Of a DNA stretch of 64,000 nucleotides, positions 1,326 to 4,300 are shown piece after piece. Source of the stretch: Escherichia coli. Lineage in GTDB: Bacteria > Pseudomonadota > Gammaproteobacteria > Enterobacterales > Enterobacteriaceae. Location: assembly GCF_003018115.1 (NCBI RefSeq), contig NZ_CP027458.1. One strand, given 5' to 3'. The position numbers were made by a program. Every line of letters starts with the position of its first letter. Within the stretch, counting starts at the first letter, position 1.

Positions 1326-4300
1326 TCATTTCAATAAACCTGGCGACCTCTGCCATCCCTTCCTGATTTTCAGCCTGCCAGCGTTCAGCACGCAGTCGCC
1401 GGGCTTCGTTCTGCATGGTCGTACTGACCAGACCGGAGATATTCACGTCATACGCCTTGAGCAGCTGATAGCTGTCGCTGTCAACTGTCACTGTAATACG
1501 CTGCTTCATAGCACGCCTCTTTTGACATACTTCTGGTATGCATATCAGTATATATTATTATGATGCAAAAATCAGCGCATTAATACACATACTGTTATCT
1601 GGCTTTTAGTAAGCCTTATTTATTTTACCTTACATTATGTTAACCAATAAAAATTAAAATCAGACTTATAAAAACAAAGCGTAATTATCGAATGACCATT
1701 TCCGGCAGATCCGATTTTTCTGTTATTTACGGGTTTCCGGAAGTGTACCACGCTGAGGAAATCATCATATTGCTGTTTTCCTCCCCTGCGCGGCGCATCA
1801 CAGGTCAGGGAGATGACACAATATATAGTGCCATGAGCAGCTGAACTAAGCACTACATGTTGTGCTTACGGGAGATAGCGCTGTGCGGAGGGAAAGGAAG
1901 ATCCTGAACAGCCGGAAACCGGATCTGTGCGGCAGAGAACGGGCAGGAGATATGATAATTAAGCAGCACACATAAAATCATATCAGATATGATTTTCACC
2001 ATTAAATACAAAACCATATCTGATATTATCAGAAATCAATAACACACAAATCATGCAGGATGTGATTTTTACCTTTAAGAACATTATCAGATGGAGCGTG
2101 CAGGATGGATGAAGAAAGGGTGTTTTCACTCAGCTATGAACAACTAACCCAGTTTGCGGAACGACGCATCCGGGAATGCAATCTGGACAGCCAGGGCGCG
2201 ATTTATCTCTGCGAGTCAGCCAAAGCCGGAGCCGTGCTGATCTTCTGGCATGAACTGGCCATAAATGGCTATGCCTCAATGAATGCCATAAAGAGACAAG
2301 AGCTCATTGACGCCGACGTTCAGCGCCTCAGAAAGCTCATCTGGCCGGAGGATGGCTGGAAATGACTCAGAGCCGCCGACCGTCGCCACTGCAGCGGAGA
2401 GTGCTGATTGTGCTGGCTGCCCTTGATGAAAAACGACCGGGCCCCGTGCTGACGCGGGACATAGAACGGGTGCTGGAGCGAAGCGGGGAAGCCCCGGTCT
2501 ACGGGCCAAACCTGCGCGCCTCCTGCCGTCGTCTGGAGGATGCCGGCTGGCTGCGTACCCTGCGCGCTCCGAACCTGCAGCTGGCAGTAGAGCTGACGGA
2601 GGCCGGCCGGGCTGTGGCACAGCCTCTGCTGCTGGCAGAACAAGACCGCCTCCGGGCAGAACAGCGTGCGGCAGAAGTCGTCGTACTGCCGCTGGTCCCG
2701 GCAGCAGGTCTGCCCGCAGATGGCACTTCTGCCACTGATCTGGAGGTGGAGCTGAACGGCATAACGTATCAGGGCTGCCGTGGGGATTTTGTGGTGCGTC
2801 TCGACGGCAGCACCTGTCTGCAGTTATGGAATAAAGAAGGCAGGGTTGTACGCCGGGAGGGCGATCCGCTGGAAGTGGCGCAGTGGCTGCAGGCCTGTCA
2901 CGATGCAGGAATGGAGGTTCGTGTGCAGGTTAATGAAAGCATCACCCCGTAAAAACATGCCTGCACGGTTTACACATCATCCCATGGTGGCAGCCGGTTA
3001 ACTTTCCTGCGCCACCAGTGGAAAGAGGCCGTGAGCAGTCCGAACAAAAAACCCCCCGTGATACTTATAATTATGGCCTCACCTGCCACCATTCCTGACG
3101 GCCCCCAGTAGATAAACCACATTGCACATCCCCAAGAAATGCCCCATAAGCTCCCCATCAACAGCGTGACCTGCCAGAACGGCATAAAGGGTAATGGCGG
3201 AAGCCGGATACCCAGCCGCCAGAGAATACACAGAAGAGGAGGGGCATAATTGCTCCGCCACATCTTTTTGCTATCCATCAGGGCAATGGCCCGGGCTTTT
3301 TTCTGCTCAAAGGTCACAGGAGCACCTCCGTTCCATGATGTAAACGTGACACAGCTTATTGTTATTGATTATTATTATCATGCTGTGGTTATGTTGTCAT
3401 GCATCAGTACACTGACAAAAGTACAAAAGAAAGGAAAACAGGCAGATGAACAGAAAATATTATTTTAATAATATGTGGTGGGATGGGTGACGGGGGGATA
3501 TATGCTGTATATGTCATGGGATTATGATTTTAAATACAGATTACTGTTCTGGTGTATTTCTCTCTGCGGAATGGTTTTGTATCCGGTTGCAAAATGGTAT
3601 ATTGAAGATACAGCTCTGAAATTTACCCGGCCTCATTTCTGGAACAGCGTTTTTTTTGCTGATACACCTGGAAAAATGGGATTGCTTGCTGTTTATACGG
3701 GTACTGTTTTCATATTATCTCTTCCGTTAACTCTGATATATATTCTTTCTGTTATTATAAAAAGGCTGTCTGTAAGATAGACAGCCTTAAATACCCCAGA
3801 ACTTATTCGCTTTTTCCACAAGCGTTTCATCAATCAGTGCACCGATGACAGCCATCAGTAAACCATATCCGATAATGCCTAAAGCGCTTCCGGTAAGAAT
3901 ACTGAAGACCAGAGCAACAAGAGCCGTTGCGGCATTACCTGCTATGATGGTTTCTGTTTTAACAAAAAAAGGACGCCAGTTACCTGTCCGAGCAGCCTTA
4001 CCAAACTCAGTGATCCAGTCGGCAAAATTTGTAATTTTTCCTGCATATCCCAGTCCGCGACGGAACCTGTTCAGATTAGACGATATATCAGACAGTTTCA
4101 CAGCCATAGCCCCCGCAGAAAGAGTACCTGCGAGAGACGATATTCTGTACGGTTCATATATTCATCCGAGGCAGGAATATCGGCCCGGTACAATCTGTCC
4201 GGGCCGGATGGGTAATTTACAGGATGTTCGCGATGGATTTAGCCAGCTGCTCTTCCAGTACAGGCTTCGCTTCTTCAAACTTCAGGTTAACCTTGTTGGC

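Follow-up and report, generated by a model that had tools for sequence, protein, structure and literature searches.

The window analyzed here is a 64,000-nucleotide stretch of Escherichia coli DNA (NCBI RefSeq assembly GCF_003018115.1, contig NZ_CP027458.1), the first 5 kb of which are plasmid backbone. The plus strand of this backbone carries two small genes, ydfA (2105–2365; 86 amino acids, aa) and ydeA (2362–2952; 196 aa), and three related palindromes precede them in the 595-bp intergenic region between ccdA and ydfA. A previous reading made from the sequence alone (the sequence-only reading) had drawn attention to this place, describing a perfect palindrome followed by two overlapping open reading frames (ORFs) beside ccdAB and comparing the layout with an autoregulated module such as a toxin–antitoxin (TA)-like or partition pair. 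The arrangement itself was borne out: the stop codon of ydfA and the start codon of ydeA share the tetranucleotide ATGA at 2362–2365 (plus strand), as read from the sequence, and ccdA (1291–1509) lies directly upstream in divergent orientation. A Shine-Dalgarno sequence for ydeA, GGAGGA (2347–2352, plus strand), stands nine bases before its ATG. Some sources give the products as "YdfA protein" and "YdeA protein", and both are "hypothetical protein" in RefSeq. The names ydfA and ydeA are attached to these conserved hypothetical genes on IncI and IncF plasmids, with IncI1 plasmids being the case in the literature, which mentions the pair in passing only and reports no function for ydfA or ydeA. 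The sequence-only reading had allowed that both ORFs might turn out to be backbone genes with established, unrelated functions; names do exist, but no established function came with them.

The first palindrome, O1 (AAAATCATATCAGATATGATTTT, 1974–1996), is present exactly as it had been described, a perfect 11+1+11 repeat with arms AAAATCATATC-A-GATATGATTTT that contains the exact core AATCA-N9-TGATT and lies just upstream of the −35 position discussed below. The weaker related sites that had been noted just downstream are two imperfect copies: O2 (AAAACCATATCTGATATTATCAG, 2010–2032), which overlaps the putative −10 element, and O3 (CAAATCATGCAGGATGTGATTTT, 2047–2069), which would fall in the transcribed leader at about +11 to +33 and again has the exact core. 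The centers of the three sites are 36 and 37 bp apart. Upstream of O1, a half-site-like element, GATATGATAAT (1949–1959), contains the sequence GATATGAT, which repeats the half-site found in the right arms of the palindromes and is nearly invariant when 18 diverged loci are aligned.

O1–O3 stand out statistically. The window holds two perfect palindromes with arms of at least 11 nt and a loop of 0–3 nt, compared with a mean of 0.1 in 40 dinucleotide-preserving shuffles. The pattern AATCATAT-N3-ATATGATT, with up to three mismatches allowed, has four matches where 0.56 are expected, three of the four being O1–O3. The exact core occurs twice (0.06 expected), both times in the ydfA upstream region and nowhere else in the window. 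The sole other match to the pattern (39530), considered as a sign of a wider regulon in the window, was rejected; it lies in DNA resembling an insertion sequence remnant and is apparently a chance occurrence. The second perfect palindrome of the window, AGAAATAAAATTTATTTTATTTCT (58650–58673), has 11-nt arms and a 2-nt loop.

A candidate promoter is interleaved with the palindromes. A −35-like hexamer, TTAAAT (2002–2007, plus strand; three of six consensus positions matched), stands 103 bp before the ydfA ATG, and an extended −10 element, TG-A-TATTAT (2021–2029, plus strand; of the form TGnTATTAT), lies within the right half of O2, with transcription predicted to start near 2036, 69 nt before the ATG. 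In the IncI-type locus L038, a promoter scan called TTGATG, a 16-nt spacer, and TG-TATTAT, exactly 103 bp before the ATG, and the TTAAAT of the window is positionally homologous to this TTGATG. For the plasmid pUA1135, BProm had been used to predict a promoter 103 bp upstream of ydfA and a start 69 nt before its ATG (PMC12111858); thus, the call in L038 and the start that it implies reproduce the published prediction. The best-conserved block of the upstream alignment, ATCTGATATGAT, is the right half of O2 and includes TATTAT in the window. With the promoter placed in this way, O1 lies upstream of the −35 element, O2 over the −10 element, and O3 downstream of the start, which is the standard geometry of a repressor. 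Immediately before ydfA, a conserved leader, ACATTATCAGATGGAGCGTGCAGG (2081–2104, plus strand), carries a Shine-Dalgarno GGAG at 2093–2096 and hardly varies between loci, including those in which YdfA identity has fallen to ~40%; the upstream alignment shows it conserved as ACATTATCAGACGGAGCGTGCAGG.

A winged-helix structure of the MarR/PadR/HxlR fold is confidently predicted for YdeA. An AlphaFold2 model built from 21 homologues (pLDDT, the predicted local distance difference test score, of 86.4) shows a three-helix, two-strand winged helix at residues 9–78 and a long helix at residues 80–104 (together residues 9–104, nt 2386–2673), followed by a low-confidence linker and a beta-rich domain with no assigned fold class (residues 127–190, nt 2740–2931). 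A fold search with the whole model returned matches that aligned over ~90–105 residues, the size of the winged-helix domain. The helix-turn-helix-like N-terminus attributed to the 196-aa protein by the sequence-only reading is therefore upheld at the level of the predicted fold. Most of the nearly invariant residues, namely N50, R52, C55, R65, R68, L78, T79, and G82, are in the predicted recognition helix and wing, in parallel with the conserved core of the operator.

At the sequence level, YdeA gave nothing significant in Pfam, NCBIfam, or PADLOC, and Pfam returned no match for 21 homologues, forms of 300–428 aa included. Single-sequence and profile searches of the PDB also gave nothing significant, the best result being a profile match to MarR with E = 0.75. 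Marginal profile matches were found between residues 21–90 and phrog_19460, a phage family in PHROGs (E = 6e-7), and between residues 13–87 and the VpaChn25_0724 family (E = 0.004); these proteins are ~88 aa long, lack the C-terminal domain, and have no known function. Clustering at the 50% level leaves a small YdeA family of 218 representatives, whose longer members (300–428 aa) carry extra domains. Among familiar autorepressors, YdeA is predicted to share its winged-helix fold and dimerization helix with the MarR/PadR/HxlR proteins (MarR, MftR, LmrR, and QsrR/HypR), and strong sequence evidence suggests that YdeA, like a MarR-type dimer, probably binds palindromes at its own promoter. Unlike in those families, however, a beta-rich C-terminal domain is added and a small partner gene precedes ydeA, and the corresponding Pfam models fail on YdeA and 20 homologues. 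The pair is thus a sequence orphan among familiar autorepressor-type systems and belongs to no named family.

The partner, YdfA, is modeled as a bundle of three helices preceded by an extended N-terminal peptide, FSLSYEQLT, which is conserved. It had no significant match in Pfam, NCBIfam, PADLOC, or PHROGs. A fold search with YdfA matched only generic helical bundles and de novo designs, without a toxin fold; the protein has no catalytic-looking invariant residues, and it matched no nucleoside triphosphatase (NTPase) family. YdfA proteins nevertheless form one recognizable family with a strongly conserved N-terminal motif. It is most likely that YdfA either modulates YdeA or is an effector under YdeA control.

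Conservation was followed in 30-odd loci drawn from plasmids and from one genome per species, covering Escherichia, Salmonella, Klebsiella, Citrobacter, Enterobacter, Buttiauxella, Phytobacter, Pluralibacter, Raoultella, Hafnia, Edwardsiella, Brenneria, and Yersinia. A phylogenetic footprint of the 175 bp upstream of ydfA in 18 aligned loci showed conservation of the three palindromes, the upstream half-site, and the leader, with free variation in the spacers that separate them. O1 keeps its position in loci whose YdeA proteins are 61–99% identical, and the O3 portion AAATCAT-N6-TATGATTTT is conserved across loci. The exact core is present in 21 of the 35 fetched loci, and every position that was compared with a mapped start of ydfA or ydeA falls in the upstream region. 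Lack of conservation of the palindrome had been named in the sequence-only reading as something that would speak against it; the palindromes are instead held in position across diverged loci, so they are conserved, and on this comparative evidence the operator is under selection. The core also stands just upstream of YdeA relatives that have no ydfA, namely those of locus L008 (29% identity by tblastn, 31% by alignment) and of the Yersinia loci L032 and L033 (45–47%), which indicates that the motif travels with YdeA rather than with YdfA. In the Edwardsiella hoshinae locus (L019, 1718–3612), which has no ydfA, ydeA is preceded by a ParA-like ORF (208 aa), a 100-aa ORF, tandem TTGTTATC repeats, and an 85-aa ORF; the first two ORFs and the repeats may, judging by their sequences, be a ParA-type partition locus with a centromere-like array.

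The junction of the two genes is likewise maintained. A ydfA-like ORF directly precedes ydeA in most loci, and in most of these the two overlap or abut, the junction reading ATGA, GTGA, or TAATG. The proteins themselves have diverged at different rates: in the 18 footprint loci, YdfA proteins share on average 49% identity in pairwise comparison, whereas the N-domain and the C-terminal domain of YdeA average 79% and 62%. The divergence of YdfA is poorly correlated with that of YdeA (r = 0.29 and 0.12), compared with 0.73 between the two halves of YdeA, and in locus L006 a YdeA ~95% identical to that of the window accompanies a YdfA that is only ~40% identical. This difference in rate and the weak correlation indicate recombination at the ydfA/ydeA junction, rapid evolution of YdfA, or both. 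That the genes form a unit is also supported by experiment in a homologue. In the IncI1 plasmid pUA1135, reverse transcription PCR (RT-PCR) showed that ydfA and ydeA are transcribed as a single transcript with the phage-exclusion gene ibfA and a proQ-like gene (PMC12111858), in agreement with the coupled two-gene module proposed in the sequence-only reading. In another plasmid, pS88, transcripts of both ydfA and ydeA were detected (PMC3438092).

The reading that we favor, with a probability of roughly 0.6, is that ydfA and ydeA form a two-gene operon under negative autoregulation. A weak −35 element (2002–2007) and an extended −10 element (2021–2029) would make up a sigma-70 promoter driving a bicistronic mRNA, in which translation of ydeA would be coupled to that of ydfA through the ATGA overlap. 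YdeA, probably as a dimer, would bind the three 19–23 bp palindromes O1–O3, recognizing the core AATCA-N9-TGATT, and would thereby exclude RNA polymerase and repress the ydfA promoter. By the general logic of such feedback, steady-state expression would be kept low on an established plasmid, and a burst of expression would follow entry of the plasmid into a YdeA-free cell. Cargo genes located downstream, such as the ibfA-proQ-like genes of IncI plasmids, would come under the same control. The conserved N-terminal peptide of YdfA may dock on YdeA, with the variable bundle facing another partner. Of the autoregulated module envisaged in the sequence-only reading, the part that stands is the union of operator, small protein, and DNA-binding partner in a single conserved unit; the TA-like and partition interpretations attached to it do not.

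Several points weigh against autorepression by YdeA or limit it. O2 and O3 each depart from the 16-base pattern by three mismatches. The distant relatives in loci L009 and L029 lack the exact core, and the Edwardsiella locus has a 75%-identical ydeA behind the unrelated 85-aa ORF, with no operator. The simple promoter scan that succeeded in L038 calls no such promoter in the window or in locus L004; for the window, this is because its −35 element is only TTAAAT. The case is built from the sequence anatomy, its conservation, the predicted folds, and co-transcription in a homologue, and it is from these that we infer DNA binding, repression, the promoter position, and any contact between YdfA and YdeA. 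Activation in place of repression would also be compatible with the sequence taken alone. Finally, neither YdfA nor the C-terminal domain of YdeA could be assigned a function.

The gene that follows ydeA is variable, and the pair is thus the constant element; in many plasmids, it is the head of an operon of changing cargo. IncI and pESI-like plasmids have a ~94% identical cassette followed on the same strand by IbfA (an AAA ATPase) and a ProQ/FinO protein, and in R64-type plasmids the pair constitutes the first two genes of the ibfA operon. DpdC-like genes directly follow ydeA in loci L014 and L022, the former with an additional ORF that we read as nuclease-like. A recurrent, uncharacterized 164-aa protein is found behind the pair in five loci, from Klebsiella, Superficieibacter, Pluralibacter, Raoultella, and Enterobacter. 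The stop codon of ydeA also adjoins or overlaps many other genes that are unrelated to one another. In the window and in loci L006 and L007, the next gene is a convergent DUF6404 gene; the window has no co-directional cargo gene behind ydeA, and the pair stands alone.

One could accordingly regard the pair as mainly a regulatory head, in which YdeA, with YdfA possibly as a sensor, gates variable downstream genes, the copy in the window being a remnant that has lost its cargo. The cassette shared ahead of IbfA and ProQ/FinO, the RT-PCR read-through into ibfA (PMC12111858), the DpdC-like genes, and the other genes that crowd the ydeA stop all fit this idea. However, the constant part is the pair itself, and in three loci the next gene, DUF6404, is convergent. 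Furthermore, ibfA expressed from its own promoter gave an efficiency of plating of 0.05, compared with 0.01 for the four-gene operon, and the pair was dispensable for defense (PMC12111858). As a self-sufficient account we consider this rather unlikely; it is an extension of the best explanation and not a true alternative to it.

A bolder form combines feedback with arrival of the plasmid. The cassette would then be an entry-burst device, in which YdeA clamps a promoter that fires on arrival in a naive cell, the rapidly diversifying YdfA is an anti-defense or competition effector or else a variable sensor docking on YdeA by way of its conserved N-terminal peptide, and phage-exclusion cargo (IbfA) is gated as well. 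We hold this to be quite unlikely. If true, the entry-burst cassette would be a general and previously unrecognized regulator of accessory and defense islands.

Closely related to this is a comparison with known burst-and-repress systems. In acr-aca operons and in restriction-modification systems with C-proteins, a small helix-turn-helix repressor is co-transcribed with another gene, binds inverted repeats at the promoter, and imposes tight feedback after an initial burst. The layout at ydfA-ydeA is similar by analogy, and no sequence relation between these repressors and YdeA was detected. On an Acr-Aca-like reading, the fast-evolving YdfA would act as an effector against host defense or in competition between plasmids, and YdeA would repress a strong promoter once the entry burst had passed. 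A small variable gene followed by a conserved helix-turn-helix gene, with inverted repeats over the promoter, is what this reading predicts, and the identities of 49% for YdfA and 79% for the YdeA N-domain, together with the shuffling of the two genes relative to each other, point the same way. So do the small helical fold of YdfA, which has no homologues of known function, the unrelated small ORF that takes the place of ydfA at the L019 junction, and the richness in phage-exclusion genes of the plasmid regions around the pair. Against this, the first gene belongs to one conserved family with a conserved N-terminal motif, whereas in Aca operons it is one of a series of interchangeable, unrelated genes, and L019 provides the only case of replacement. 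The pair lies beside ccdAB, resD, and repA in annotated loci and not among the genes of the leading region, where anti-defense clusters have been reported. A tblastn search found no YdeA-like sequence in 50,697 phage records, and nothing links the pair to inhibition of defense. Such a function is, in our judgment, highly doubtful.

In a reverse-order type II TA system, YdfA would be the toxin and YdeA its DNA-binding, autoregulating antitoxin, and the pair would stabilize the plasmid beside ccdAB. Like type II systems, the pair consists of two small, adjacent, co-transcribed genes behind a palindromic operator, with autoregulation likely on the reasoning given above. Toxin-first systems of the higBA, mqsRA, and hicAB type have genes of similar size in the same order, with overlapping frames, a second protein that binds DNA, and an operator that is palindromic, and the location among maintenance genes and the very high prevalence on plasmids are also in keeping with such a role. 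In addition, the YdeA winged helix has a weak match to the AbiEi_4 antitoxin domain (E = 0.057). Membership in AbiE was considered and rejected; the AbiEi_4 match is no better than this, and no nucleotidyltransferase gene is adjacent. Several points count against the TA interpretation itself. Neither YdfA nor YdeA matches a toxin or antitoxin family in Pfam, NCBIfam, or PADLOC, and YdfA offers only its generic three-helix bundle, in which no invariant residue looks catalytic. Natural disruptions of either gene are tolerated: in locus L036, IS26 has removed ydeA and left ydfA intact with its native promoter and operator, and Tn21-type insertions in ydfA have been reported in some IncI1 plasmids (PMC9412624). 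Solo YdeA relatives exist, and the shuffled genes with their poorly correlated divergence are unlike tightly co-evolving cognate pairs. We therefore regard the TA-like suggestion of the sequence-only reading as very improbable.

It is scarcely credible that the palindromes are not YdeA sites at all but sites for a host factor such as Fur, an RNA leader structure, or a partition centromere: the sites are AT-rich and superficially Fur-like (GATAATGAT...), the pS88 ydfA transcript fell, not significantly, with an iron chelator (PMC3438092), O3 and the T-run behind it could form a hairpin, and repeated palindromes are centromere-like, with TubR among the fold matches, yet the core motif follows ydeA where ydfA and the neighbors differ, the leader folds no better than shuffled sequences (z = +1.1), Rfam has no match for the region, and the pair includes no NTPase partner. 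The Fur box in the ydfA upstream region was rejected as a candidate, the best match in 1930–2110 scoring 11/19, a background score reached ~400 times in the window; the RNA-based explanation was rejected for want of a leader structure and an Rfam match. As for the partition pair of the sequence-only reading, besides the missing NTPase, ParM/ParR-type and ParA-type genes are already annotated just past ccdAB in the matching plasmid.

The cassette is widespread. Of 5426 complete E. coli genomes, 2097 (~39%) carry the pair, and ~30% of complete genomes of the species contain 80% or more of the cassette; almost all matches in the E. coli survey (2831 of 2874 places) are on plasmids. In PLSDB, at least 5000 of 72,556 plasmids carry it, among them resistance and virulence plasmids of the IncF, IncI, IncK, and IncR types; ydfA-ydeA is absent from the F plasmid itself. 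Some Klebsiella plasmids (PLSDB H51, H59, and H68) have three or four separate copies or fragments of the cassette, and these could cross-regulate one another because the operator core is shared. The portion of the pESBL transposon-sequencing (TnSeq) tables that covers the repZ to parA-like region does not name ydfA or ydeA and hence gives no fitness data for them. A genome-wide association study of IncK2 plasmids read plasmid ydeA as the chromosomal L-arabinose exporter (PMC12987596); since the plasmid gene shares its name with the chromosomal exporter gene ydeA, this interpretation may be a naming artifact.

The first 5 kb around the pair are 99.9–100% identical to an IncFIA/FIB/FIC plasmid of a Shiga toxin-producing E. 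coli (STEC) strain and 96% identical to pO113. Upstream of the pair and divergent from it are a gene for a ResD-type integrase (174–983, minus strand) and ccdB with ccdA (984–1509, minus strand). The interval from ccdA to the ydfA operator holds a non-coding element of ~150 bp (1692–1870) that is conserved, adjoins ccdA in F as well, and contains 15-nt inverted repeats at 1817–1831 and 1850–1864. It probably corresponds to rfsF, the ResD target, or to the ccd control region, and it does not belong to the ydfA-ydeA module. A 50-aa ORF in the same place (1692–1844) seems conserved as a protein, its translation matching at least 5000 plasmids; it was rejected as a gene, the frame being broken by stop codons in other loci.

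Downstream, the DUF6404 gene (2970–3317, minus strand) converges on ydeA and is followed by a colicin-E1-type immunity gene (3475–3780, plus strand), a 106-aa colicin pore-domain fragment (3787–4107, minus strand), and then traT. The immunity gene and the fragment (3475–4107) appear to be what is left of a colicin locus after decay; in related plasmids (L007), the gene at the equivalent place is an intact one for colicin Ib. The best Fur-box match in the window, GTTATTGATTATTATTATC (3361–3379; 16 of 19 positions), falls in the promoter region from which the DUF6404 gene and the colicin-immunity-like gene diverge. In pS88, the place of DUF6404, between the colicin immunity gene and ydeA, is held by ybaA, which rose ~5-fold, not significantly, under an iron chelator. 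Farther along the window, a 497-aa ORF (37205–38698) has four tandem 37-aa repeats with the consensus ATARIEGDAQTLKSANTYTNKQVNALEQNTNQQLQHE; the protein is presumably similar to Saa, the autoagglutinating adhesin encoded by STEC plasmids of the pO113 type.

The ydfA-ydeA pair is among the commonest uncharacterized gene modules on enterobacterial plasmids, many of which are clinically important. With an operator, a promoter, and a candidate repressor now proposed for it, an anonymous pair of hypothetical genes becomes a circuit that can be tested directly. The model also hints at possible control of ibfA and other cargo by the same circuit.

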